Shown piece by piece: positions 1-12,624 of a stretch of 12,624 nucleotides of DNA. Position 1 is the first letter of the stretch; every line of letters starts with the position of its first letter. The DNA is from Candidatus Hodarchaeum mangrovi (GTDB lineage: Archaea > Asgardarchaeota > Heimdallarchaeia > Hodarchaeales > Hodarchaeaceae), in NCBI GenBank assembly GCA_016839515.1, contig JAEOUE010000035.1, forward strand, positions 1 to 12,624. Reading direction: 5' to 3'. Below the pieces are notes generated by a model. The model searched no databases. It saw only the letters and a list, made by a program, of their open reading frames with translations, and was not told where the DNA came from. Made by a program: the position numbers and the translations under genes.

Positions 1-2
1 CC

Positions 3-347
3 CAAACCGTCTCTGAAGTTCTACAAAAATTCATTGAATCCACAGAAGAGCTTTCAGGGATAGCGCTGTATACAGATGAAGGTTTACCTGTTTTTGAAGA
101 GGGTGATCTTGCTGATTCCATTTTAATCCCTGCAAACCTGTGGTTAAGCAATTTAGACCGTATTCAGGATGAATTCAAGACTTCCAACACGTACAAAACT
201 TATCTTGAAACAGATGATTTGATTTTTGTCTGTGAAAGACTTAAATCTGAAATAATTCTCACAGGAATTGCAATAAAAGTTGAACCTTTACAATATATCC
301 TCATTAAAATGGAAGAGGTAGCTAATGCCCTGAAAGATATTGTATAA
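3..347 (+). CDS. Roadblock/LC7 (MglB/LAMTOR-like) domain, 5'-truncated; stand-alone roadblock or C-terminal domain of an upstream Rag-like GTPase
   Basis: Not in the ORF track. Frame 3 is open from the window edge to TAA at 345-347 (114 codons): QTVSEVLQKFIESTEELSGIALYTDEGLPVFEEGDLADSILIPANLWLSNLDRIQDEFKTSNTYKTYLETDDLIFVCERLKSEIILTGIAIKVEPLQYILIKMEEVANALKDIV*. The pattern helix, 'GIALYTDEGLPV' hairpin, helix, three strands, terminal helix is typical of roadblock domains. Confidence 0.8.
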   Translation, partial: QTVSEVLQKFIESTEELSGIALYTDEGLPVFEEGDLADSILIPANLWLSNLDRIQDEFKTSNTYKTYLETDDLIFVCERLKSEIILTGIAIKVEPLQYILIKMEEVANALKDIV

Positions 348-389
348 TCACTTTAACTAATCCAAACAATCAATTCATAATTTATAGAG

Positions 390-3300
390 ATGATATTATC
401 TTTGGTTACTATAAAATCTAGAATTTATTCTAATTTTAATTTTATTTTTTTGATATGTATTTTTTTTGGCAGTCTCTTATTAACAGATTATTCAACTCAG
501 ATTGATAATACTCAAGAATCATTTAATTTGTTAAATAGACTTATGCGAAGTTTTGGATTAATTAAAGAGAATTTAAAGGAACCAACAAGATTTTCAAGAC
601 ACGTTAATCGTCTAATTGCTCCAACACAAGATTCAACAAATAACTGTACCAGCATATTTCCTAGTGGGATAAACGCCAAGATAATTGATTCACATGAAGA
701 TTATGTCGATAATAATGTCTCAAATATAGATGGAGTAACAGATAAGGGTAGTCACTCAAATTTTGACAATCAAAAAACTGGACCAGATAATTTCTATGAT
801 GTGTTAAGTGAAACAGATGTCAATACGGTAAATCAATTGAATTTGTCTGTTGACTCATGGGATATTACACGAAATAAGTGGGCAAAGACAGGAGCTTCAC
901 CGTATTTGGATAATCAAACTATACCATCTGTAAATGAGGTTCATACAGTCGCAAACGCAGTCGGGAGTAAAAATGGTGATGAAATTGGAGATTTTGGATT
1001 TCAAGATGTAAATTTGAGTGGAACTTTAATCTCGGTAAAATTAAGTGTATATGGCCATGCTAATCCATCTTATCCGACAGATGCTTATTTTTCTGTTCAT
1101 TTATGGAACGGAAGTATCTGGATTGAAATAATGAATTTTTCAGGGGAACCAAATTTTTGCTGGAAAGAGGTAGATGTTAGCACTTACATAAATACTTGGG
1201 AAAAAGTTAATGGGACTAAGATATTCTTAAGAACTGAAGACCTTGGAGGAAATAAATATGGAGAACAGCTGTGTGATTTGGCAATTTTAGAAGTTAATTA
1301 CCTTCCTCTGCCAAATTACAATATTGATGTAGAATTACAATGGACTTCTGCTATTTTCACAAAACCAAATGCTCAGTTAGCAATTTATACAGGAAATTTA
1401 GGTACAGAAGGATTAAGAGTGGATGTGTGGAACGGATCATGGATTATTATAATTCCAAATTTGATAACGGATTCATGGAACAATGTAAGCATTGAAAATT
1501 ATTTAAAATCATCAATTTTTACTATTCGATTTAAGGGGACAGAAGAAAGCTCTGATACAACACAAGATCAATGGAATATTGATGTTACATTACTTCATAC
1601 GTGGGATAATGATATTACTCCTCCAACAATTAATGATTTTGGGGTGGACGATCTAGGGACAGGAGTGGGAATTTTTTGGGCGAATATCTCTGATTCTCAA
1701 TCTGATGTCGATGAAGTCACACTCCAAGTGAACTCATCACAATATGCCATGGTTTATAATGGTTCTCCAAGTGAATTAGGGTTTTGGGTAAAACAGATTG
1801 CTGTTAATTTTAATGGGTATTATTCGTATCAGATTATAAATGCTTCAGATTCAGCAGAGAACTATATTTCAGTTCCTTCAGAAATAAGAAACCATACATT
1901 TAATCTTGATACTACAGCTCCCATAATCGAAAACTGGGAATATTTTGCAGATATTGGAGTCAATGGGACATTTAATGCTAACATCACCGATAATTGGGGA
2001 GAACTAGACACCGTTATTGTAAATGTAACTGAAATAGATGGTATTCCCCAAAATAATTTATGGGCAATCATGGTTCCTACTCCATTTGGTTTCGTTAACG
2101 ATACTCTCTTCATGGATAAAGATCAGGTGTTTAATTTTTCTATTTTTGCTAATGATACTTCGGGGAATTCTTTCATTTCGTTAAAACACATTGGAACTGG
2201 TCCGAATCATCCACCAGAAGCAACTAACCTATCTATTTCGGTTAATCCAAGAACAAATGAATCTTTACTAGCTGATTGGATTTTTAATGATGTAGATGGG
2301 GATGGCGAAAGTGGGTCTTTAATCCGCTGGTATAAGAATGGAGTCTTAGTTCCAGCTTATAATAATCTTAAGACAGTTCCTTTTGGTGCGACAAGTAAAG
2401 GTCAGGTTTGGAATTATACACTCCAAGTATTTGATGGCGATGATTATTCAACTCTCTATTATTCGCCTATCACAACCATTATTAATACTCCTCCTGAAGC
2501 TAGTAGTGTAACACTTACACCTACACCAACAAGTAGTGACGAAATAGTGGCAGGATGGATTGCATCTGATATAGACGGTGATAACCCAAATAATTTTTTG
2601 AATGTAACAATAATTAGATGGTATCAATGGGTTGGAACATGGATAGAAATTCCAGAATGGATGAACTCCACTTATATCACACCTGATGACCTAACAAGAG
2701 ATGAGATATTTCGTTTTGAAATCCAGCTTTTTGATGGAGAGGAATATTCTCAAGTCTATATCTCTCCAAATACGACAATCTTGAATTCATTACCAATATT
2801 AACAACTATTCCATCTTTTAATAAAACAACAGGTATAACTACTTCCGATAATATCAATATTACATATCTATATAATGATGAAGATGGGGATGTAGAAGTA
2901 GTAGGGGAGAGAATCATTTTTTGGTATCGAAATGGGCAATTTAATTCAACAAAAACAAATGATACAATCCTATTAAGTTCTGAAACAGCCTCTGGAGAAA
3001 CATGGCAATATATAATCCGAGTTTATGATGGTTTTGAATATAGTATAAATTATACCTCTATCTTGATTTCAATTGATTCATATACCAATACCATCCCTGA
3101 GGTTCAAAATATTCTATTATCTGGTAATACAAATTCTACAATTGAAACTCTTATTGCAAGTTACAATTTTTATGATGCTGATGGGCATCAACAGGTTGAA
3201 AAACACATCCGTTGGTATATGAACGGTACCCTACAATCTAGTCTCAATAATTCCTTTACGGTGAATCCCAGCCTTACAGTTAAAGGCCAAATTTGGAATT

Positions 3301-6300
3301 TTACTATTAGAGTTTTCGATGGTCTAAATTGGTCTCTACAATATAATTCTAGTAAATTAACCATTCGAAATTCTATTCCGCAAGTCAATAATATACAAAT
3401 TACCTCTAATACGACAACTATATCTAATTTAATTATAGATTGGGATTTTAGTGATTTAGACGGGGACAATCAGGAAAGATTTGATCTTAAATGGTATATT
3501 AATAATATTTATAACAGTTCTTATGATGATTTAACTGAGATAGATTCAACTCAAACAAAAAAGAACCAAAATTGGATATGTTCAATAAGAATCTTTGATG
3601 GTGAAAATTATTCATCATGGTTTAACTCATCTAGAACTTTTATTTTTAATACTCCTCCTTCTCTCCAAAATTTAGGTCTTCAAGGAGGAAAAAATACAAG
3701 TCAGAACATTACTCTGGTATATAATTTTGTTGATGTTGATAACGATAGTGAAGATACAGAGAATACTATAATAAACTGGTTTTTCATTAATGGATCCATC
3801 ATTCTGGGTCAAAATACTATAGAACTCGCTAATGAGTATTTTGTTGCAGGGAATATCCTTTATGCGAAAATCACTCCCAATGATGGTGAAGATTCTGGCA
3901 CTACTTATCAAACTGGATATTTACAAATAGGAAATGCAAAACCCACAATTATTGGTCTTCCAAATATTGTTGGATTTAATGATAGTGCTATATATTTTGC
4001 TGCTGTTTCACTTTCCGTCAATTATACAGCCCAAGACTTAGATCATCCCTTTTTCATCTATGATATTGATGTTGATGAGAATGGTCTTGTAGTTGGCTCA
4101 AATTATCGTTGGTATAAAAATGGGCAAATTATGAGCGATCTAACTGGACCAATAGTCTTACCCTTTTATTTATCAAAAGGTGATCTATGGATGGTAAGCG
4201 TCCAGCCAAAGGACAGATATGGTGATCTAGGTTCTTGGATAAATTCCTCAGAAATACTTATTGGTAACACCCCTCCAGAGATATTATCATTTTCATGGAC
4301 CACCACTTCCCCAACTGTTCAAAACGACCTTTCTTTTACTTATACTTTTTATGACCTTGATTTTGATTCTGAATGGCAGAATCAAACTAAAATTTATTGG
4401 TATAGGAATAGTATAGAAATCTCTGTGGCAAGAAATCAAAGTACTCTTTCCAAATTATTGTATGTAAAGGGAGACTCTATTAACCTGTCAATTCGATTAT
4501 TTGATGGGACAAATTATAGTCTTTTATATAGATCTACATCAGTAACTGTTGTTAACTCAATTCCTGAAGCTCAAAACATCGCTATTCTTCCCACTAAACC
4601 ATATACATACGATTCGTTACAGGTCAAATATGATTTTTTCGATTATGATACTGATAATGAAAGTTCAAATCGGATTATTCAATGGTTTCGTAATGGAATT
4701 CTTGTCCCAGAATTGACAAATAGCTCAAGAGTAAATTCAACGTATACATCATCAGGAGAAGTCTGGATCCTTCATTTAAAAGTCTCTGATTCCCTTAGTT
4801 ACAGCCAAGAATATATTTTACCTCCTGTAATTATTTTAAATTCGCCTCCAAGAATATTAGGAATTTCACTTGAAGGAAATATTAATTCAAGCTTTGCTGA
4901 TTCAAGTCTTACTTTTAATCTAAATGAGGATATTATAGTTTATGATCCAGATCAGGATGTGATTATTAGTTATTCAATTTCTTGGTTAAAAAATTTTGAA
5001 TTTCAATATATCTATACTGGCCAACCAATAATTCCTGAATCTGAACTCATTAAAGGAGATATCTGGTTTGCGATTGTACGAGTCTTTGATGGTAAAGACT
5101 GGTCAGGAAATCAATCTTCTCAAGAAATCCTAATTATCAATAAAGCACCAGAAATCCTGAATCTTTGGTTAATAAACAATTCATATTCTGAATTCTTATT
5201 GGAAAATGAGAATATTTCATTAGTTTATGATTTCCAAGATATTGATGATGACTTGGATGATTCCATAATATACTGGTATCAGAATCAGATTTTTCTACCT
5301 GAATTTACCAATTCAAGTCAGATACCAGCTGAAGAAACTTTTCCAGGAGATAGTTGGTATGCTGAAATTCTCCCCTATGATGGAGAATTATTTGGTCTAA
5401 AAGTGAATTTATCGATTTACATAGAAAGTCAACCAACAATTAATGAGGTTGGAGTCGATATCAATTCTGATAAGGAGGGTCATTATACTTTTTGGGCTAA
5501 TGTTACAGATCCACAAAATCCCATCACAGAGGTAATCTTTCGTTTTGATTTCCAAAATAACACCTTAGAACAAAGAAAATGGGCTGAATTTAATGGTACA
5601 ACATGGACATTAGATTATCAACTAGAGAACTATTCTTATCTTGGGAATTTGGTACGAATAGAAGTCACAGCAATATCTACTGTAAACCCATTATTATATT
5701 CTACTAGTTTTGAGATACTTACAGTTACAATGTTTGATTATGTAATGAATGATGAAGTTGCTCCTCGGATAAGGAATGCATACTTTACAAGAGATAATGA
5801 ATTAGATCCCAAATTTTTAACTTTTTATGCTGAAGTAGAAGAATTTGGTTTTGGTATTAGTCAAATTGTTATTTATTATTATTTTAAACCCTTTACTGAG
5901 GGAAATGGAGCCACTATTGCAGATTGGATGAGTTCTTTAATGATTTTTCAGAATCGTAATTTAACAGATAGTTACGAGCTCTGGTCTCTCGAAATAGATT
6001 TTCATCACAACAACTCAAATTACGAAATTCTATATTACATTTCCACCTCAGATAAAACAGGAAATGAAGATCCTTTAGCATTTGACATCAGAGCTTACCC
6101 TCAACGAATCATTGAGAATAGGTTTATTTATAAACCTCAAGGTTTACCCGAATGGATTTTATTAATTGCAGCTTTTGTAATTTTTCTGATATTCGTTGGT
6201 GCTATGGTGTATGTAAGGTTCATACGGAAACCTGAAATAATAGGTTTTGATAGAGACATAGTTATGAAAAATATAGAAAAAATAAGTGATACTGAAATAA

Positions 6301-6806
6301 ATGCTTCTCTAGATCTACATACACTTGGAGTTATTCTTTCTTATTTTGATCAAAGATCTGGACCTGTTCCCCTTATTGTAATTCCAGACTTATTACAGGA
6401 TAATATAACGCCTTTAATAGCCCTTTCAGATCGTTCATTCAACAGCTGTGGATTTGCAAATGATTTCACCTCAAAAACATTTTCAAGCTTTGATTTCTCT
6501 CTAGAAAGTCTTATACGCATTAGTTCGATGTCCTATGGATATTCAATAGCAAATAAGGAAGCAAGAGGGGGAGCAGAACATTATACTGTAAATTTACTCA
6601 TTATTCCAGAAATATTCCCATTAATTAATCAATTCAAAGAAGAACTTCAAACAGCTGTTCATGAAATTCATATGTTGATGACAAATGAACCTGAAAACAA
6701 GGATGCAATTCTAGAATCAGTAATTAATCTCAGGAAAAGAGTTTCATACATTGTTTTATCCTATAAGGATGTTTATAAAACTACAGAACTGATAAAAGAG
6801 ACCTAA
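390..6806 (+). CDS. Giant type I single-pass membrane glycoprotein (2138 aa): N-terminal beta-rich modules, 11 cadherin/Ig-like repeats, TM helix, cytoplasmic longin/uDENN-like domain
   Basis: Uninterrupted ORF. N-terminal hydrophobic stretch; DxxPPxI/DxxAPxI Ig-like domain boundaries; 11 repeats with NxxP...DxDxD...WYxNG...GxxW...FDG; TM WILLIAAFVIFLIFVGAMVYV followed by basic RFIRKP (positive-inside); cytoplasmic SYFDQRSGPVPLIVIP and EARGG motifs. The exact start codon is uncertain. Confidence 0.9.
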   Translation: MILSLVTIKSRIYSNFNFIFLICIFFGSLLLTDYSTQIDNTQESFNLLNRLMRSFGLIKENLKEPTRFSRHVNRLIAPTQDSTNNCTSIFPSGINAKIIDSHEDYVDNNVSNIDGVTDKGSHSNFDNQKTGPDNFYDVLSETDVNTVNQLNLSVDSWDITRNKWAKTGASPYLDNQTIPSVNEVHTVANAVGSKNGDEIGDFGFQDVNLSGTLISVKLSVYGHANPSYPTDAYFSVHLWNGSIWIEIMNFSGEPNFCWKEVDVSTYINTWEKVNGTKIFLRTEDLGGNKYGEQLCDLAILEVNYLPLPNYNIDVELQWTSAIFTKPNAQLAIYTGNLGTEGLRVDVWNGSWIIIIPNLITDSWNNVSIENYLKSSIFTIRFKGTEESSDTTQDQWNIDVTLLHTWDNDITPPTINDFGVDDLGTGVGIFWANISDSQSDVDEVTLQVNSSQYAMVYNGSPSELGFWVKQIAVNFNGYYSYQIINASDSAENYISVPSEIRNHTFNLDTTAPIIENWEYFADIGVNGTFNANITDNWGELDTVIVNVTEIDGIPQNNLWAIMVPTPFGFVNDTLFMDKDQVFNFSIFANDTSGNSFISLKHIGTGPNHPPEATNLSISVNPRTNESLLADWIFNDVDGDGESGSLIRWYKNGVLVPAYNNLKTVPFGATSKGQVWNYTLQVFDGDDYSTLYYSPITTIINTPPEASSVTLTPTPTSSDEIVAGWIASDIDGDNPNNFLNVTIIRWYQWVGTWIEIPEWMNSTYITPDDLTRDEIFRFEIQLFDGEEYSQVYISPNTTILNSLPILTTIPSFNKTTGITTSDNINITYLYNDEDGDVEVVGERIIFWYRNGQFNSTKTNDTILLSSETASGETWQYIIRVYDGFEYSINYTSILISIDSYTNTIPEVQNILLSGNTNSTIETLIASYNFYDADGHQQVEKHIRWYMNGTLQSSLNNSFTVNPSLTVKGQIWNFTIRVFDGLNWSLQYNSSKLTIRNSIPQVNNIQITSNTTTISNLIIDWDFSDLDGDNQERFDLKWYINNIYNSSYDDLTEIDSTQTKKNQNWICSIRIFDGENYSSWFNSSRTFIFNTPPSLQNLGLQGGKNTSQNITLVYNFVDVDNDSEDTENTIINWFFINGSIILGQNTIELANEYFVAGNILYAKITPNDGEDSGTTYQTGYLQIGNAKPTIIGLPNIVGFNDSAIYFAAVSLSVNYTAQDLDHPFFIYDIDVDENGLVVGSNYRWYKNGQIMSDLTGPIVLPFYLSKGDLWMVSVQPKDRYGDLGSWINSSEILIGNTPPEILSFSWTTTSPTVQNDLSFTYTFYDLDFDSEWQNQTKIYWYRNSIEISVARNQSTLSKLLYVKGDSINLSIRLFDGTNYSLLYRSTSVTVVNSIPEAQNIAILPTKPYTYDSLQVKYDFFDYDTDNESSNRIIQWFRNGILVPELTNSSRVNSTYTSSGEVWILHLKVSDSLSYSQEYILPPVIILNSPPRILGISLEGNINSSFADSSLTFNLNEDIIVYDPDQDVIISYSISWLKNFEFQYIYTGQPIIPESELIKGDIWFAIVRVFDGKDWSGNQSSQEILIINKAPEILNLWLINNSYSEFLLENENISLVYDFQDIDDDLDDSIIYWYQNQIFLPEFTNSSQIPAEETFPGDSWYAEILPYDGELFGLKVNLSIYIESQPTINEVGVDINSDKEGHYTFWANVTDPQNPITEVIFRFDFQNNTLEQRKWAEFNGTTWTLDYQLENYSYLGNLVRIEVTAISTVNPLLYSTSFEILTVTMFDYVMNDEVAPRIRNAYFTRDNELDPKFLTFYAEVEEFGFGISQIVIYYYFKPFTEGNGATIADWMSSLMIFQNRNLTDSYELWSLEIDFHHNNSNYEILYYISTSDKTGNEDPLAFDIRAYPQRIIENRFIYKPQGLPEWILLIAAFVIFLIFVGAMVYVRFIRKPEIIGFDRDIVMKNIEKISDTEINASLDLHTLGVILSYFDQRSGPVPLIVIPDLLQDNITPLIALSDRSFNSCGFANDFTSKTFSSFDFSLESLIRISSMSYGYSIANKEARGGAEHYTVNLLIIPEIFPLINQFKEELQTAVHEIHMLMTNEPENKDAILESVINLRKRVSYIVLSYKDVYKTTELIKET
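441..482 (+). other. Signal peptide / signal-anchor hydrophobic core
   Basis: Residues 18-31 FIFLICIFFGSLLL, preceded by basic K9 and R11. Confidence 0.65.
2205..5426 (+). repeat. Array of 11 tandem protein repeats (93-111 aa), cadherin-like/Ig-like, probably Ca2+-binding
   Basis: Repeat starts (NxxP) at 2205, 2484, 2784, 3087, 3369, 3648, 3933, 4266, 4554, 4839, 5139. Acidic loops: DVDGD, DIDGD, DEDGD, DADGH, DLDGD, DVDND, DLDH, DLDFD, DYDTD, DPDQD, DIDDD. Divergent at the DNA level. Confidence 0.85.
6153..6215 (+). other. Transmembrane helix of the 2138-aa protein
   Basis: 21 uncharged residues WILLIAAFVIFLIFVGAMVYV followed by RFIRKP. Confidence 0.9.
6315..6803 (+). other. Cytoplasmic longin/uDENN-like domain (FLCN/SMCR8/NPRL2-like) with candidate arginine finger
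   Basis: Strand-FDQRSGP-strand hairpin (6345-6365), helix LIALSDRSF, strands around YGYSIANKEARGGAEHYTVNLLI (Arg codon 6564-6566), then two C-terminal helices; this fits the longin secondary-structure order. Confidence 0.7.
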
Positions 6807-6845
6807 GAATATCACAGACCCTTTCACTATCAATCTAACACATTA

Positions 6846-6866
6846 TTTAATAAAGTTAAATAACTT
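6846..6866 (+). promoter_or_regulatory. Possible archaeal TATA box with overlapping short inverted repeat upstream of the GTPase
   Basis: TTTAATAAA at 6846-6854 in the 86-nt intergenic gap, and AAGTTA-AA-TAACTT at 6853-6866. Weak evidence in an AT-rich background. Confidence 0.3.
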
Positions 6867-6880
6867 GATTAATCTAAAAT

Positions 6881-6885
6881 AAGGA
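6881..6885 (+). promoter_or_regulatory. Possible ribosome-binding site for the GTPase
   Basis: AAGGA 7 nt upstream of ATG 6893. Confidence 0.35.
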
Positions 6886-6892
6886 CGAAAAC

Positions 6893-7843
6893 ATGCATTC
6901 TACTAATAATATCCAAAGTAAGAAATTAGTCTTATTAGGATTAGCAGAGACTGGAAAATCGACAATAATCAAAAATGCTCTAGAAGGTATCATAACAAGA
7001 CCTGGAGAAAAATATGATGCCACAATTAATTATCAAAGAAAAATCAAAAGGTTATGTGGACTTGAAATCATAATATTTGATTTAGGAGGACAAACAAGGT
7101 TTTTAGATAAATTTACTGGAGATCTTTCACGTTTTGTTTTTAGTGATATTGATGCATTTATCTTTGTTATAGATCCTCTCCAAACAGCTCTTTATTCTCG
7201 ATCAAAGTATTACTTGGAGCTTTCTTTAGAAAGGATGAAGATCTTCAGTTCAAATGCGGAAATATTTGTGTTCCTACATAAAATGGATCTTATTCCACGT
7301 CCAGATCGTAATATTATATCAGATAATCTAAAAAAATATCTTACTTCAGAAATTAATAATCCAATTCAATATTTCGAAACTTCAGTGTTTAATGAATCAA
7401 TCTATGAGGCAATTGGCTCTATTATTTCAAAAATTTTTGATTTAAAACGGATATTTAATAAAACTCTGATTGATTATATAACGAAAAATATAAAGACTAT
7501 TGTTGAAGTTCATCTTCTTACCCATGAAGGGATATTTCTCCTTCAAGCTTCTAATAATCACTTTAAAAACTCAATTCCCCATAAAAAAATTCGTAAATAT
7601 TTTATTTATGCGTTAGAACAAAAAATCCTTTTTAATAAAGAAAATACAGTTATTTCAGTTGAAGGGAAAAAGAATGTTTATCTTACATACTTCTTAGAAA
7701 GAGGGTTAGCAGTCTTAATTGCTGTCTCAAAACAAAATTTAACACAGGACGTAAAATTTTCATCTGAGATTTATGAAGACATTCTCAAGTTCGCATTTTC
7801 ATTAAATGAAAAATCAAATCTTTTGACAAAGGGAGGTAGATGA
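6893..7843 (+). CDS. Rag/Gtr-family small GTPase with C-terminal roadblock-like domain
   Basis: G1 GLAETGKS (6938-6961), G2 YDATI, G3 DLGGQ (7079-7093), G4 HKMD (7277-7288; His in place of Asn is the Rag/Gtr signature), G5 ETSVFNESIYEA (Rag-like TSI.D.S/T...A). The C-terminal ~125 aa contain IVEVHLLTHEGIFLL, a roadblock-type hairpin. Confidence 0.88.
   Translation: MHSTNNIQSKKLVLLGLAETGKSTIIKNALEGIITRPGEKYDATINYQRKIKRLCGLEIIIFDLGGQTRFLDKFTGDLSRFVFSDIDAFIFVIDPLQTALYSRSKYYLELSLERMKIFSSNAEIFVFLHKMDLIPRPDRNIISDNLKKYLTSEINNPIQYFETSVFNESIYEAIGSIISKIFDLKRIFNKTLIDYITKNIKTIVEVHLLTHEGIFLLQASNNHFKNSIPHKKIRKYFIYALEQKILFNKENTVISVEGKKNVYLTYFLERGLAVLIAVSKQNLTQDVKFSSEIYEDILKFAFSLNEKSNLLTKGGR
7832..7837 (+). 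promoter_or_regulatory. Shine-Dalgarno-like site for ORF 7848
   Basis: GGAGGT within the last GTPase codons, 10 nt before ATG 7848; the genes are 4 nt apart, consistent with an operon. Confidence 0.55.
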
Positions 7844-7847
7844 ATTT

Positions 7848-8225
7848 ATGCTTGATCAAATTCTCCAGGACTTAGAAAGTAGAGATGTAGAAATAATATC
7901 CAGAGGCTTAAAATTTTATATCACATCTGACGATCTATGGAAAAATAATCAGGCCCTAGACCAAATATTCAATCTTTTATATCATGAAGAATATGCTATT
8001 CGAGATAAAACAGTAGAAGTATTAAAATTCCTAATTCAGTTTAATAGTTCATTACACGAAACTCTTGCTATACACTTGCTCAAAATAATAGGTAATTTGG
8101 AATTAAACATTGAATTATGGTTCCGTTGCCTAGAACTCTTTACACTCTTACCAAAAAAGTCATTACCAAAAGAATTCATCATTAAAATTTTGATTCGGAT
8201 GGCAATTATGTTCAAGGATTTTTGA
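7848..8225 (+). CDS. HEAT-repeat protein, N-terminal part (probably one gene with 8222..10903)
   Basis: HEAT-like units LESRDVEIISRGL and LLYHEEYAIRDKTVEVL; overlaps the next ORF, which is in the -1 frame. Confidence 0.65.
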   Translation: MLDQILQDLESRDVEIISRGLKFYITSDDLWKNNQALDQIFNLLYHEEYAIRDKTVEVLKFLIQFNSSLHETLAIHLLKIIGNLELNIELWFRCLELFTLLPKKSLPKEFIIKILIRMAIMFKDF

Positions 8226-10903
8226 CATTTTTAATTCGTGAAAAGAAAGGTTATGGTACAATTATAGAAGAATTGATTAATTATATAGAAGAAAAACAAT
8301 TAGATATAAATTCTGATGCTAAAAAGTCCTTTATTTGGCTTTTTTGGAATAACAACTCAATTATTAGTCCAAGAGTCATAGATTTAATTTGTAAATTAAG
8401 CGAAGATGAAGATCGAGAGGTAAGAAGATTATCCTGCGAAATTTTAGTACAATTTGCGAATGATTCCAGATTTTCATATGCTATTTTTGAAACATTGGAG
8501 AAAAGAATAACGGATGAATCTTGGCGTGTTCAGAGAGTGGCAATTAAATGTTTGTTACAGAGTACGCAGAATATATATCAAGAAGACGAACATTTTTGGA
8601 CTAAAGTTGTAGGTTTGTTTTGGAATACAAGTGCATTGGTTCGAAAAAATGTATGTGAAACATTGCCACTCTGGATTCCTATTACAGAGGAAAAAAATAA
8701 AATTTTCTTAGAAATGATTGAGAATGCGCTTGCTGATGAAAATTGGGAAGTTCGAGAAAGTGCAGCAATCTCTTTAAATAAATTTTTAGATTTGGATCTT
8801 CAATATAAGAATCTTATCTATCCAATTATGAATTTAACTAACGATCCACATCCAGAAGTTAGAAAAACAAGTTGTCAAATCTTAATCGATAGGGATAATG
8901 CATTTAATAACAAAAACGACCTCCTCAAAATAATTATTGAATTATTAAATGATTCAAGCTTCATTGTCAGAGAAACTGCAATAAAAGGTTTAAAAAAGCT
9001 AATACATGAAGTAAATAGTGAAAAACTCTTTGATCTAATCTTAAAAATCCTTCTAAAACTATTAATTGATAATAATATTGAAGTTCGAGCGGAAGCATGG
9101 AGTTTTCTTTATGATTTGATGGGAGTTTTCCATGATTCTCATTTTGATTTATTAATATCTTCTATAATCAATTTTCAAAATCCCCTTGATCAAGACATTC
9201 AATTAAACATTTGTTCTTTTTTAAAAAAATGTAAAAAATTCATTTTGGAAAATAATCCACCTGTTTTTCATTTTCTAAAACCAATGTTAAAAGATAATAA
9301 TGAAGAAGTACTTGAAAATAGCTGGGAAATATGTAGAACCATCTTTCCTCAAGAAACTAGGGATTATATAGTAGAAATTTTACCTAACATTCAGGAAGAA
9401 AATGAATCAACCTCTAAGTTTTTAAAAGAGGTATTTTGGGCATCACATGAACTAAATTTAATAAAAACCAATCAGAATATCTCTACAATAACCATTCAAG
9501 TTCTTGAATCAAGTAATGATCAGGAATTACAAATTATAATTCTTAAAATTCTTTATAATTACGAAGATGACTTTATTTCTCCAGAGTTAATCCATAGCAT
9601 TATAAATCAAGGACGATGGATTGTCCAAGAGGCGTGTATTCCTTATATTATTCGATATTGTACTCAAGAGGATATTAAGGATCAAATCAAAACAAAATTT
9701 CTGAGAATGATCAACGAACTCCTTCGAAATCCTATTGATAGATTTGAATCCTTAAATACAGAGAGTTTAAAGGGACAAGATACGGAATATGAAAAGCTCT
9801 TTTTACCTGATAATATTAGTAATCTAATTGATTCTTGTAATGATGATCAGAGGCTTAAAAATTGGATATTACTTGAAAGAAAATTTGATTTCCTTCAAAA
9901 GACCAGTCATCCAATTTTTACTCAATTAACAGAGGATTTTTGTATAATTTTCTTGCCAGAATTAAGAAAGTATACGAAAAAGCTCAATTTAATAGGACGA
10001 ATTGGAGAAAAGAATGATATAAAGATGCTAATGTCTATATTGCAAATAATGATTATTCAACAAGCGCAATTACGAGAAAAGCTCTTAAATGAGATAATGA
10101 TTTCCTTTGATTTAATTAATCCAAAATATAAAAGTATCCGAAAACAAATTATTGAAAACCTACTGATTGATTCAATCCTTAATATTCGGACTATTTCGTG
10201 GAAAATTGTATTGGATTTCATATTCAAGCTCGATGAAACACAGTTATTAGATAACCTTCCGCTAATTGCAGACCATCTTGATAGTCAATTTGAAGATGCT
10301 CGAATTAGAGCATTATCTATTTTATTATCGGAAATAAATATTAGAGAATCATCATATGAATGGATTTTCAATAAAGTAATTCAAAAAATAAGTGATCCTA
10401 CTTTTTTTGTAAGAAGTCAAGTCTGGAATTATTTAAGGAAGAAGATTGATATATCTTACTCCCGATATGATTTATTGAAACTCAAAATTTTGGATCTTTT
10501 AGCAGATGCAAATATTGATATCAGAAATGAAGCTTTTATTTATTTTGATGAGAAATATGGGACTTTTAATGAAATTATTAGTGAATATTCACACAAATAC
10601 GAGGTTAAACACGCTATAGCTACGGTATTAGGGCAACAAGGTAAGCATGATGAAGCATTTTCCTTTTTTAAAGAAAATATAAAAAATAATCCAAGCAAAT
10701 TAGAAAGTTGGTTGGGACTAGTCCTAATTTATCTCTCAAAAAATGAAATACAAAATGCTACTAGAATTCTAAATAAATTACAAGACAAACACCCATTAGA
10801 AATTATAATTTATGAGCTTCTAATTGAATGTGCCATTGAAGCAAATGATTTGGATTTAAAAAAAATATATGAAGAGAAAAAGAGATTGTTAGAAATCCTT
10901 TAA
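8222..10903 (+). CDS. Alpha-solenoid HEAT-repeat protein with C-terminal TPRs
   Basis: HEAT motifs LSEDEDREVR, ITDESWRVQR, LADENWEVR, TNDPHPEVR, LNDSSFIVR, LIDNNIEVR, LKDNNEEV, LIDSILNIR, LDSQFEDAR, ISDPTFFVR, LADANIDIR. TPR-like tail IATVLGQQGKHDEAFSFFKENIKNNP...SWLGLVLIYLSKNEIQNA. The nominal start is TTG and the frame is already open from 8186. Confidence 0.85.
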   Translation: MTFLIREKKGYGTIIEELINYIEEKQLDINSDAKKSFIWLFWNNNSIISPRVIDLICKLSEDEDREVRRLSCEILVQFANDSRFSYAIFETLEKRITDESWRVQRVAIKCLLQSTQNIYQEDEHFWTKVVGLFWNTSALVRKNVCETLPLWIPITEEKNKIFLEMIENALADENWEVRESAAISLNKFLDLDLQYKNLIYPIMNLTNDPHPEVRKTSCQILIDRDNAFNNKNDLLKIIIELLNDSSFIVRETAIKGLKKLIHEVNSEKLFDLILKILLKLLIDNNIEVRAEAWSFLYDLMGVFHDSHFDLLISSIINFQNPLDQDIQLNICSFLKKCKKFILENNPPVFHFLKPMLKDNNEEVLENSWEICRTIFPQETRDYIVEILPNIQEENESTSKFLKEVFWASHELNLIKTNQNISTITIQVLESSNDQELQIIILKILYNYEDDFISPELIHSIINQGRWIVQEACIPYIIRYCTQEDIKDQIKTKFLRMINELLRNPIDRFESLNTESLKGQDTEYEKLFLPDNISNLIDSCNDDQRLKNWILLERKFDFLQKTSHPIFTQLTEDFCIIFLPELRKYTKKLNLIGRIGEKNDIKMLMSILQIMIIQQAQLREKLLNEIMISFDLINPKYKSIRKQIIENLLIDSILNIRTISWKIVLDFIFKLDETQLLDNLPLIADHLDSQFEDARIRALSILLSEINIRESSYEWIFNKVIQKISDPTFFVRSQVWNYLRKKIDISYSRYDLLKLKILDLLADANIDIRNEAFIYFDEKYGTFNEIISEYSHKYEVKHAIATVLGQQGKHDEAFSFFKENIKNNPSKLESWLGLVLIYLSKNEIQNATRILNKLQDKHPLEIIIYELLIECAIEANDLDLKKIYEEKKRLLEIL

Positions 10904-10930
10904 ATTTCTTCTACTTTTCCTCTTTTATTA
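10904..10930 (+). terminator. Possible archaeal T-rich terminator at the convergent gene junction
   Basis: ATTTCTTCTACTTTTCCTCTTTTATTA directly follows TAA 10903. Only 7 nt separate the two convergent stops and there is no hairpin. Much of the tract is also explained by Lys/Glu codons of the opposite gene. Confidence 0.3.
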
Positions 10931-12623
10931 ATTCTGTGGTCTGATAGATATTTTCATAACTTAAAATTATATAACTGATGAATTCACGCAGATTCTTTAT
11001 CATTCTATTAATTTCATCCATTTCTTCCTCTTTCTTATCCATGTGAAGATGAATCTTATGAACTTCTGTTTTGATTTCATCTTTAAATGATTCAACAAGA
11101 GGGAAAAGATCCTGATGAACAAGGATATTCAATGTTATATTTTCTTGACCACCACGAGAATTAGGTCTCTCTAAGGCATAACCATATGAAAGAGAACTAA
11201 TTCTAATCCCTTGACTTAATACAAAATCATAACTTGAGGGAATCTCAACCGAAAAGTTGTCAGCAAATCCACAGCTACTAAATGAACGGTCACTCAATTC
11301 GACTAATTTTGTGAAGTTATCCTTCAATATTTCAGGAAGTACAATTATAGGAATTGGTCCATGTCGTTGATCAAAGAAGGAAACAACTATACCAATAGTA
11401 TGCAGTTCCATCGTATTACGGACTTCTGTTTCAGTTACATCGCTAATTTTATTCAATACTAATTCCTTATCAAGGCCCACAATTTCAGGTTTTCGAATGA
11501 ATTTTACATACACCACAGCTCCTATGAATATCAACACCACCATTGCACCAGCAACTAATAAAACCCATTCTGGTAGACCAGGAGGAAGATATTTTATGAT
11601 ATTACGTTCAATGCTATCAGGGTCGTCTCGTTGGACATCCCAAGCTGTTGGGTTACTATTTCCAGCACTATCTAAGGTTGCAATACGGTAAATGACTTTC
11701 CAATCAGTTCCATTGGCATCAAAAGGTATAGTAACAGAATAAAGGGATGAGAGAGCAGAGGAGTTAAGAAGGCTCATAAAAACGCTGTATTCTGACTGCG
11801 AAAATGAGGCTCCCAATCCTGCTGGAGCAGCAGCGGATACTTCCTCAAAGTAGTAATACAAAGACACTTCACTGATCGCACTCCCATATTCCTGTAGCTC
11901 AGCATAAAAAGTAATACTGGTAGCGTTATAGATGAAATCAACACCTTTTACACGAGGAGCTACCGCATCTGTGATGGTAAAATTAAAGGTAAATGTCTGG
12001 TAGATCTCAAAAGTTTGATCATAATCAACTTGAGTGATGATTTTTATGTCAGCGATAATTAAACGGTTTAAAAGATCCTGGAACTGGGTAGGAGTGAGCT
12101 GATAATCAAGAGTCCATGTATTAGTCCCCTGGACTTCTTCCGCATATTTAGTACCTCCAATCGTATCATTGAATGAGTATTCAACAGCATAGATGGAATG
12201 GTAAGTGTCATTCACGGTTATAACAAAGGTATAATGGCCTTCCACATCTTCTTCGATTGTAATAATTTCTGATGCTAATGTACTGAGGGAGGGACGACTT
12301 TCAATGGAAATGATTGATGAATTCAGATGTGCCCAGGTGTATGTCCCATCAAAGGGGATGATTGAACAATACCACTTCTGACCTGGAAGGGTTGCCTCGG
12401 ATGGAATGACAGATTGGTTTTCAAATTCTACAGCTTCAAGCCAGGTGTTAGTGCCCTGATCGGTAAACCAGCGGATAGAGGCATTCGAGACGTCTCTGAT
12501 AGTATTAAAGTAGTAATTAATGGATAGATTTTCATCCTCGACATAAAATTCATCCACACGAATGTTAGGATCAACCTGACCTGTGAGATCAAAGCAATAC
12601 TCAATAGTGAGCTTTTTCGTGAA
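10911..12623 (-). CDS. Paralogue of the 2138-aa membrane protein (last repeat, two Ig-like domains, TM, longin/uDENN-like tail); 5'-truncated by the window edge
   Basis: The frame stays open past the GTG at 12557 to the edge (FTKKLTIEYCFDLTGQVDPNIR|VDEF...). Collinear with the C-terminal part of ORF 390..6806: IESRP/IESQP, EGHYTF, WTLDYQL, DAVAPRV/DEVAPRI, GLPEW-TM-FIRKPEI, FDQRHGP (11355-11375), SRGG (Arg codon 11154-11156), TTELIKE. Confidence 0.9.
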   Translation of the reverse strand, partial: FTKKLTIEYCFDLTGQVDPNIRVDEFYVEDENLSINYYFNTIRDVSNASIRWFTDQGTNTWLEAVEFENQSVIPSEATLPGQKWYCSIIPFDGTYTWAHLNSSIISIESRPSLSTLASEIITIEEDVEGHYTFVITVNDTYHSIYAVEYSFNDTIGGTKYAEEVQGTNTWTLDYQLTPTQFQDLLNRLIIADIKIITQVDYDQTFEIYQTFTFNFTITDAVAPRVKGVDFIYNATSITFYAELQEYGSAISEVSLYYYFEEVSAAAPAGLGASFSQSEYSVFMSLLNSSALSSLYSVTIPFDANGTDWKVIYRIATLDSAGNSNPTAWDVQRDDPDSIERNIIKYLPPGLPEWVLLVAGAMVVLIFIGAVVYVKFIRKPEIVGLDKELVLNKISDVTETEVRNTMELHTIGIVVSFFDQRHGPIPIIVLPEILKDNFTKLVELSDRSFSSCGFADNFSVEIPSSYDFVLSQGIRISSLSYGYALERPNSRGGQENITLNILVHQDLFPLVESFKDEIKTEVHKIHLHMDKKEEEMDEINRMIKNLREFISYIILSYENIYQTTELIKEEK

Positions 12624-12624
12624 G

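Follow-up and report, generated by a model that had tools for sequence, protein, structure and literature searches.

A folliculin-related longin domain with a candidate arginine finger in the cytoplasmic tail of a giant predicted surface protein of Candidatus Hodarchaeum mangrovi

Introduction

Why would a giant, apparently surface-exposed archaeal protein carry on its cytoplasmic side a small domain with the motifs of a eukaryotic GTPase-activating protein (GAP), and which GTPases could such a domain serve? The question is raised by a stretch of 12,624 nucleotides (nt) from Candidatus Hodarchaeum mangrovi (assembly GCA_016839515.1, contig JAEOUE010000035.1, positions 1 to 12,624, forward strand), which we refer to as the window. 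It holds an open reading frame (ORF) at 390..6806 (+) encoding a protein of 2138 amino acids (aa), followed by ORF 6893 (6893..7843, +), which encodes a 316-aa GTPase. An original prediction, made from the DNA letters alone, had read the C-terminal tail of the giant protein as a longin domain of the folliculin (FLCN)/SMCR8 type with R2059 as the catalytic arginine finger, and had implied that the product of ORF 6893 is its partner. The Hodarchaeales, to which the organism belongs, are discussed as being close to the eukaryotic stem.

This reading has lost some of the novelty then assumed for it, because Asgard longins of the FLCN/SMCR8 type with a Gly-Pro (GP) motif and an arginine finger have already been published (PMC12290439, Traffic 2025, sections 2.4 and 2.6). 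The domain class is thus in print, and what is new here is its receptor-like architecture and the Rag-family gene neighbourhood. The same study leaves the partner GTPase undecided between Arf-related and Rag/Gtr proteins. The locus and its relatives offer a concrete and testable answer to the question which GTPases are served by the GAP-motif longins of Asgard archaea, as they combine a membrane-tethered longin of the GAP type, an enrichment of Rag/Gtr genes (often a short and a long one as a pair) and a predicted docking. We lean towards the view that the tail, tethered to the membrane and probably dimeric, acts on Rag-like GTPases as a longin GAP whose finger is R2059.

Motifs and position of the tail

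The translation of 6315-6803 (+) contains GVILSYFDQRSGPVPLIVIP and then YGYSIANKEARGGAEHYTVNLLI. The GP motif of the former is G1991-P1992 (6360..6365, +), and the Arg of KEARGGAEH in the latter is residue 84 of this translation, i.e. R2059 of ORF 390-6806 (codon 6564-6566, +), 68 residues past the Gly of GP. Both motifs, the residue number and the codon are as originally described. The same applies to the comparison with the paralogue, a second giant surface-protein gene of which the 3' part lies at 10911..12623 (-), convergent with the gene for a HEAT-repeat protein. Its longin tail (10920..11495, -) is 50% identical to the window tail over 192 residues and carries GIVVSFFDQRHGPIPIIVLP and YGYALERPNSRGGQENITLNILV; FDQxxGP and RGGxE are common to both tails, and the seven residues preceding the Arg are all different.

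A HMMER scan of 1.84 billion representatives with the tail gave 149 proteins at E <=1e-3, 117 of them at E <=1e-10 and 70 at E <=1e-30. Conservation was assessed in an alignment of 122 sequences, i.e. the query and the 121 of 149 hits that span query residues 35-125, the 28 fragmentary hits being dropped. G1991 and P1994 are kept in all 122 sequences, G1980 and F1986 in 121, R2059 in 120, P1992 in 119, E2063 in 118 (with Asp in the other 4) and G2061 in 110, and R2115 is present in 118/118 ungapped sequences. A clean alignment of 28 sequences taken from genomic loci has the same invariants, R2059 included. This pattern is far beyond chance, and the Arg that had been singled out as the finger is indeed conserved in homologues.

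A hydropathy analysis of the 2138-aa protein revealed only two strongly hydrophobic segments. The N-terminal one (residues 12-36; 423..497, +; peak 1.87 in a 19-residue Kyte-Doolittle window) is presumed to be a signal peptide or an anchor, and the second one (~W1922-V1942; 6153..6215, +; peak 2.97) is a predicted transmembrane helix. The helix is directly followed by R-F-I-R-K, consistent with a positive-inside orientation, and NxS/T sequons are found 68 times before this segment and twice after it. The simplest topology is that of a single-pass type-I surface protein, probably glycosylated, in which residues 1946-2138 (6225..6803, +; 193 aa) form a cytoplasmic tail that consists of two short helices and a longin domain. 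The ectodomain (~1885 aa, window 390-6224) displays many repeats of ~90-100 aa by eye, with recurrent W..NG, W.Y...FDG and similar patterns, and no Pfam family was matched by the 1945-aa N-terminal part of the protein.

The same arrangement is found throughout the family. In 100/100 hits covering the whole domain, nothing but 0-16 residues follow it, so that the domain is always C-terminal, and the host proteins range from 166 to 5809 aa. A transmembrane-like segment directly precedes the domain in 107/116 members with enough upstream sequence; the remaining nine are short proteins of 280-393 aa. These short members (P0039, P0059, P0061, P0072, P0075, P0077, P0079, P0081 and P0123) may be soluble forms or mis-called fragments, and their N-terminal regions of 90-200 aa found no match in Pfam or PDB searches.

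Predicted fold

The AlphaFold2 model of the tail, built on a 43-row alignment, has a predicted local distance difference test (pLDDT) score of 93.8 and a predicted template modelling (pTM) score of 0.89. After two N-terminal helices its elements follow the order beta-beta-alpha-beta-beta-beta-alpha-alpha-alpha, which is that of a longin (strands E33-42 and E46-53, helix H55-75, strands E85-93, E97-109 and E117-126, then helices, in tail numbering). GP forms tail residues 46-47, the first residues of strand E46-53 (beta2), and R2059 is placed in the loop between strands 4 and 5, within ARGGxE[N/H]. As for the eukaryotic fingers, we take them to be R164 in FLCN and R78 in NPRL2. SMCR8 R147 is named in PMC12290439; according to section 2.4 of that paper, GP either closes the beta1-beta2 loop or opens beta2 in the longins of FLCN, NPRL2, SMCR8 and C9orf72, and the pair of GP and Arg is specific to GAP longins, being missing from longins that are not GAPs. 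Only 9 residues remain past the last predicted helix of the tail, i.e. no DENN or NPRL-specific module follows the longin.

A VIA-align comparison with 48,161 chains agrees with the AlphaFold2 topology in pointing to a longin, the fold that had been proposed. The best match was a Lokiarchaeota Roadblock-Longin protein, 8yqg_B (Z 13.2, root-mean-square deviation (rmsd) 3.0 Å, 141 aligned residues, 17% identity). It is followed by 6nzd_H of FLCN-FNIP2-Rag-Ragulator (Z 11.5, 2.6 Å, 135, 16%), 7o2w_A of C9orf72-SMCR8 (Z 11.0, 4.0 Å, 152, 12%), 8fw5_B of GATOR1 (Z 10.8, 3.4 Å, 135, 10%), 4zy8_C of Lst4 (Z 10.6, 3.1 Å, 128, 9%), 8adl_S of the SEA complex (Z 10.2, 3.8 Å, 139, 8%), 6lt0_B of C9orf72-SMCR8-WDR41 (Z 9.8, 3.4 Å, 131, 8%) and 6ulg_N of FLCN-FNIP2-Rag-Ragulator (Z 9.3, 4.0 Å, 151, 10%). 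The top eight rows are thus one Asgard longin and chains from the FLCN-FNIP2, C9orf72-SMCR8, GATOR1/SEA and Lst4 entries. Longins of entries not known as GAPs rank lower, at Z 8.7-7.4: DENND1A (6ekk_A, Z 8.7, 4.3 Å, 129, 10%), TRAPP (7b6d_H, Z 8.4, 3.1 Å, 121, 5%), AP5 (8yah_C, Z 8.3, 4.3 Å, 134, 8%) and VAMP7 (4afi_B, Z 7.4, 3.5 Å, 114, 4%). This order seems to favour the longins of GAP complexes, as a trend and not as proof, adjacent rows being within ~1 Z unit.

Foldseek returned longins at a probability of 1.00 and with template modelling (TM) scores of up to 0.64 (8yqg_B, 6ulg_N, 4zy8_B, 8dhb_J, 9v0j_A and 9o5a_H). By E-value, LOV/PAS chains came first in this search (4.5e-4 to 7e-4), yet with an rmsd of 31-36 Å and a TMq of 0.31, and PAS/GAF domains reached Z 6-7 in VIA-align. 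A PAS/LOV identity of the tail was rejected because of the rmsd of those alignments.

Relationship to folliculin

A profile search among proteins of similar length retrieved only unnamed 'hypothetical' proteins without Pfam domains. The link to folliculin emerged from the relatives of the tail. The Pfam family PF11704 (Folliculin) weakly matches 5/43 of them (best E 5.2e-4), and a search of the whole genome with PF11704 detected, on contig C238, a 422-aa protein that scores 29 bits (cut-off 23.3) and, on contig C289, the tail of another giant, which at 15.2 bits falls below that cut-off. The C238 protein contains FDEEHGP and DSRARG at a Gly-to-Arg spacing of 68, equal to that of the tail, and in its family (37 aligned sequences, most with a precomputed PF11704 match) F21, G26, P27 and R94 are invariant.

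When the tail alignment was compared with that of the C238 family by hhalign, the two matched over 125 columns with a probability of 81.2% and an E-value of 1.2e-5; FDQRSGP is paired with FDEEHGP, ARGG with ARGK and R2059 with R94. A control comparison of the tail alignment with the GTPase alignment gave 0.27% and E 0.22. On these profile alignments the tail is distantly homologous to a bona fide folliculin-like family of archaea, and the two motifs line up between them. The homology is seen only at the profile-profile level, because the Pfam scores of the tails are below the cut-off.

The C238 protein is encoded at L092:2181-3446 (-). About 270 residues follow its longin and are possibly DENN-like, and one small ORF away lies a 160-aa ORF (L092:3835-4317, -) that looks roadblock-like by eye.

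The Rag-like GTPases and their predicted docking

The product of ORF 6893 is a full Rag/Gtr GTPase with a G domain and a C-terminal roadblock domain. It matches Pfam Gtr1_RagA at 104 bits (cut-off 22; E 1.1e-29), its best PDB matches by sequence are RagA (2.2e-17) and Gtr1 (6.6e-15), and its AlphaFold2 model (pLDDT 86.4), the C-terminal half of which has the order alpha-beta-beta-alpha-beta-beta-beta-alpha, superimposes on Gtr1/RagA in Foldseek with TM 0.81-0.85 over ~305 columns. Among its homologues, a 97%-identical GTPase is labelled Candidatus Hodarchaeum mangrovi, and others are labelled Hodarchaeales and Heimdallarchaeota. The sequence contains GLAETGKS from residue 16, FDLGGQ with DLGGQ at 63-67 (7079..7093, +), the switch II motif with a glutamine of the catalytic type, and HKMD at 129; HKxD in place of NKxD is typical of Rags. 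D63, G65, G66 and Q67 are invariant in 44 homologues, so that the DxxGQ glutamine attributed to this GTPase in the original prediction is indeed present. Besides ORF 6893, eight more Rag-like ORFs were scanned, from loci linked to tails or in the genome of the window, and every one of the nine gives a Gtr1_RagA match between E 1e-24 and 1e-38; GxxxxGK[ST], DxGGQ and HKxD are kept in 11/11 Rag-like ORFs examined.

A complex of two tail copies with the G domain of ORF 6893 (residues 1-190), GTP and Mg was predicted. Its interaction scores derived from aligned errors (ipSAE) were 0.78, 0.76 and 0.76 (median 0.76), as against 0.02 for the best of three controls; the pass mark is reached by 58/80 solved complexes and by 2/110 mismatched pairs. 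The runs share at least 86% of their contacts, with a partner pLDDT of at least 85. The predicted interface comprises residues 41-47 (F-D-Q-R-S-G-P), 65, 69, 72-73, 76-77, 114-117 (R-G-G-A) and 119 of the first tail copy, residues 41-46, 62, 65-66, 69, 73 and 114 of the second, and residues 18-19 (P-loop), 40-49 and 51 (switch I), 67-70 (Q67, switch II), 80-81 and 84-85 of the GTPase. The pairs with the lowest error include G46-Q67, P47-Q67 and G46-A18 (tail-GTPase). In this model the GP loop and R2059 face the P-loop, the switches and Q67, which would be the geometry expected of an arginine-finger longin GAP.

Genomic neighbourhood

The tail family is present in 51/83 genomes of the class of the window, with up to 10 copies per genome in its genus. 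Outside the class, strong matches (E ~1e-60) occur in one of 141 genomes sampled across the phylum (G105, family f21; C4:38008-38565 and C13:32966-33517), which could reflect a lateral transfer or a classification issue, and ORFs of 247-499 aa in other classes give weak matches (E 1e-7 to 1e-10).

Rag-like genes accompany the giants in three layouts. Orthologues of the window giant are preceded by a 564-aa long Rag-like GTPase (-) and a 300-aa short one (+). In paralogous loci, contig C28 among them, the giant (+) is followed by a long GTPase of 731-751 aa (-) and a short one of 298-303 aa (+). In two other families of the class, a same-strand GTPase of 490-651 aa lies ~50-200 nt downstream of the giant, next to an opposite-strand GTPase of 407-409 aa; the directly downstream same-strand GTPase is found in 8/9 of these loci. 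The window itself begins with the remains of such a gene. The ORF at 3..347 (+), immediately upstream of the giant gene at a gap of 42 nt, encodes the C-terminal roadblock-type domain of a short Rag/Gtr-like GTPase of which the 5' part is lost at the contig end. By itself it gives only a weak match to Robl_LC7 (E 0.13); it is 90-92% identical to the C-terminus of the 300-aa ORFs directly upstream of the orthologous giants in loci L039 and L040, and the one in L039 matches Gtr1_RagA at E 2.1e-38.

In an unselected count over five genomes, a hit to PF04670 lies within 10 kb of 8/28 tail genes, compared with 1.56 expected from a uniform scatter, and 14/43 Rag-family hits are near a tail gene. The linkage between tail genes and Rag-like genes is real but partial, most paralogous tails not being beside a GTPase gene.

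Short (298-322 aa) and long (564-751 aa) GTPases, both Gtr1_RagA-positive, form divergent gene pairs, also next to tail genes, at L039:879-4049, in L057 (G000:C28:12572-15897), L043 and L047, and in genomes G057, G061 and G065. The two products may form a heterodimer like RagA/RagC. In the long GTPases, a C-terminal extension of ~370-560 aa gave no Pfam match and no usable match in the Protein Atlas.

Discussion

We propose that the giant surface protein would anchor a GAP longin of the folliculin/NPRL2/SMCR8 type on the cytoplasmic side of the cell membrane. The tail, most likely as a dimer, would dock onto the G domain of Rag/Gtr-family GTPases. Its loop with G1991-P1992 would then lie on switch II and the P-loop, with R2059 entering the nucleotide pocket as an arginine finger and thereby speeding GTP hydrolysis. 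The likeliest substrates would be the short upstream Rag-like GTPase (3-347) together with its long partner, because this gene order is conserved, with ORF 6893 being possible but less well supported. The original FLCN/SMCR8-type reading of the tail is partly supported and stands up to the limits of computation. It has gained from the fold, the conservation of the Arg, its alignment with R94 and the predicted interface, and has lost as regards the partner that it implied, since ORF 6893 has no conserved place beside the tail gene.

A number of points weigh against this proposal. What the analysis shows is the fold, the conservation of the motifs, the C-terminal position behind a membrane anchor, the profile-level homology to the PF11704-positive family and the enrichment of Rag-like genes beside tail genes; the binding of a GTPase, the catalysis by R2059 and the identity of the substrate are all things that we infer. 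The window tail has no Pfam match at E <=1 and none in NCBIfam, and its sequence, used alone or as a profile, retrieves no FLCN, NPRL2 or SMCR8 from the PDB, only chance helical matches; the C238 family profile does not match FLCN in the PDB either. The structural matches to chains of the FLCN/NPRL2/SMCR8 type are aligned ranges and Z-scores, not residue-level superpositions. R2115, a second invariant Arg, lies in the last helix, outside the listed predicted interface. The score of the complex may stem from the memory of the model, because similar complexes (FLCN-RagC, GATOR1-RagA) have already been solved, and it would then express likeness and not binding; custom alignments and riding ligands also depart from the calibration of the tool. 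The tail homodimer was an assumption of the input, even if both copies contact the GTPase, and eukaryotic GAP longins act as heterodimers with one finger only. As for the neighbourhood, a first synteny count (a GTPase hit in 14/19 fetched loci) was biased to the best-scoring matches and was set aside, related genomes do not count as independent samples, and neighbours are hidden where contigs are short. In the five genomes mentioned above, 20/28 tail genes have no Rag-family gene within 10 kb, and no GTPase lies downstream of the orthologous giants in L039 and L040 as far as these loci were retrieved. Finally, the order GTPase, 125-aa ORF and HEAT/TPR gene is found in 7/7 orthologous loci of the genus (L085-L091; ORF 6893 orthologues with 44-53% identity), and a tail gene is nearby in 1/7 only.

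The last two points bear mostly on the idea, implied in the original prediction, that the tail is a GAP with ORF 6893 as its specific, co-expressed substrate. The two genes are on the same strand, the spacer between them (6806-6893) is 86 nt long and has no oligo-T run, it was this exact pair that scored well in the predicted complex, and a GTPase gene directly follows the tail gene in most loci of the two other families. On the other hand, L039 and L040 have the short Rag-like gene upstream instead, close cousins of a true partner also pass the complex test, and ORF 6893 could have a promoter of its own in an AT-rich, TATA-like stretch that we read ~40 nt before its ATG. Its conserved operon partners are the 125-aa and the 893-aa HEAT/TPR genes, not the tail, and the HEAT-repeat protein would be a dedicated partner of this GTPase. 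We consider the exclusive pairing with the tail, a sub-case of the GAP proposal, rather improbable, if worth keeping in mind. It is a little harder still to argue for a tail that is a non-catalytic membrane tether or scaffold for Rag-like GTPase dimers or roadblock/longin proteins, comparable to Ragulator/EGO at the lysosome/vacuole, where the conserved Arg and GP would serve binding or folding. The transmembrane helix before the domain and its terminal position throughout the family would suit such a role, and longin and roadblock dimers are described as general GTPase platforms in the introduction of PMC10933270. The complex model, too, supports docking and not chemistry. Ragulator, however, holds Rags through their roadblock domains, and the interface predicted here is the nucleotide pocket with the P-loop and both switches; moreover, the pair of GP and Arg is the one that section 2.4 of PMC12290439 finds specific to GAP longins. 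We regard a purely structural role as unlikely.

A guanine nucleotide exchange factor (GEF) or effector platform, as in TRAPP, Mon1-Ccz1 and the DENN proteins, would be in keeping with the fact that longin platforms are mostly GEFs (PMC12290439, section 2.4) and with the matches of DENND1A and TRAPP longins to the tail model. The chains of GAP complexes score higher (Z 9.3-11.5), the GP and Arg motifs are present, and the contacts modelled with bound GTP extend to Q67 and the P-loop, all of which makes an exchange function very doubtful. Even less can be said for a PAS/LOV/GAF-like sensor of small molecules, or for a longin of the SNARE or adaptor-sigma type that has nothing to do with GTPases. 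LOV/PAS chains do head the Foldseek list, but the poor geometry of these alignments and the Z of 6-7 against 9.3-13.2 for the longins of GAP complexes argue against a sensor, and either version would leave the conservation of GP and Arg and the GTPase neighbourhood unexplained; we find it scarcely credible.

If the tail is an arginine-finger GAP for Rag-like GTPases, then the relationship between FLCN/GATOR1 and the Rags is older than eukaryotes and had its first use at the cell membrane. One could go further and speculate about a receptor-GAP family of Heimdallarchaeia in which the ectodomains sense contact or a ligand, their clustering assembles the longin platform and the tails switch off Rag-like heterodimers at the cell membrane. 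The lysosomal longin-GAP/Rag module would then have begun as a signalling device on the surface of the archaea nearest to eukaryotes and moved to internal membranes later. We offer this scenario as a long shot. In practical terms, the tail would, if its GAP role is true, be a simple single-domain soluble construct for studying longin GAP chemistry, and the Rag-like GTPase genes that are often near tail genes provide candidate partners for work at the bench.

Comparison with known systems

It is worthwhile to compare the tail with the complexes that it resembles. With FLCN-FNIP2, the GAP of RagC/D, it shares the longin fold, the GP motif, an Arg in an 'ARG' context and, in our proposal, a Rag-family client. 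The structural match is with chain H of 6nzd, an entry of the whole FLCN-FNIP2-Rag-Ragulator complex, and the link to FLCN itself is a profile-level homology via the PF11704-positive archaeal family. Unlike FLCN, the tail lacks a DENN domain behind its longin, remains below the PF11704 threshold and is membrane-anchored, whereas FLCN is recruited by Rag-Ragulator. A second subunit like FNIP was not identified, although no search aimed at such a partner was made. GATOR1 (NPRL2-NPRL3-DEPDC5, the GAP of RagA/B) and C9orf72-SMCR8-WDR41 are likewise longin-dimer platforms with one arginine finger and match the tail structurally (8fw5_B and 8adl_S; 7o2w_A and 6lt0_B), and ORF 6893 is by sequence nearest to RagA/Gtr1, RagA/B being the client of GATOR1. 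Both are heteromeric soluble complexes with extra domains or subunits, none of which was seen in the window. The archaeal C238 protein is similar to the tail in its FDEEHGP and ARG motifs, in the spacing of 68 residues and in the hhalign probability of 81%, and differs from it in being soluble, in the ~270 further residues after the longin and in lacking a fusion to a surface protein.

More distant parallels exist in bacteria and animals. MglB is not known to supply an arginine finger to its GTPase. Like the tail, it belongs to the roadblock/longin superfamily and is a prokaryotic dimer that acts as the GAP of a Ras-like GTPase, MglA, as outlined in the introduction of PMC10933270. It differs in having a roadblock fold, not a longin, and in not being membrane-anchored. 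Plexins, single-pass receptors of animals, combine a large ectodomain and a single transmembrane helix with a cytoplasmic Rap-GAP domain. The receptor layout is the same, and GAP activity could depend on dimerisation in both, yet the plexin GAP fold is unrelated (RasGAP-like) and eukaryotic, so that we draw an analogy only and imply no homology.

The Asgard longins of PMC12290439 (15 sequences from UniProt/AlphaFold DB) resemble the tail in the position of GP before or at beta2, in the neighbouring conserved Arg, in being notable in Heimdallarchaeia and in the proposed GAP role. In its main text, in which the word 'transmembrane' occurs 0 times, that paper treats them as longin proteins; the tail family, in contrast, forms the C-terminal cytoplasmic tails of surface proteins of up to 5809 aa and has Rag-family genes enriched alongside. 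The part of 10.1101/2020.10.19.343400 available to us, in which 'transmembrane' also occurs 0 times, reports FLCN-like proteins (longin and DENN) from some Heimdallarchaea as well as fusions of NPRL2-like longins to two-component domains. Excerpts of 10.1101/385732 mention a folliculin N-terminal domain in Lokiarchaeia, and those of PMC10933270 state that the GTPase genes of MK-D1 are generally outside operons with roadblock/longin genes, which makes the matching of GAPs and GEFs to GTPases difficult. The accessible portion of PMC13037920 added nothing specific. In the literature searched, no paper was found on a longin-GAP tail of surface proteins or on its linkage to Rag-like genes.

Recently solved Asgard structures include 8yqg (the longin dimer of Roadblock-Longin), 8yl2 (the LokiRagO tetramer) and 8zla and 9m28 (LokiRagM), for which the same literature contained no accompanying paper; experimental studies of Rag-longin systems in archaea seem to be in progress.

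Other features of the locus

Downstream of ORF 6893 the window contains the two other genes of the conserved operon, a 125-aa ORF (7848..8225, +) with a weak match to Adaptin_N (E 0.016) and an ORF for the 893-aa HEAT/TPR protein (8222..10903, +; Pfam HEAT E 2.7e-32, TPR_19 E 2e-4). The two ORFs share 4 nt in different frames.

Tandem arrays of tail-bearing giants were also observed, with two genes on contig C289 (G000:C289:1-6211; L006 and L007), three in L049 and two in L054; in the L049 and L054 arrays, only the final gene is followed by a GTPase gene. One copy of the tail domain (G000:C261:666-1130, -; L005) is degraded, with one TAG and two TAA codons inside the match, and is probably the remnant of a pseudogene.

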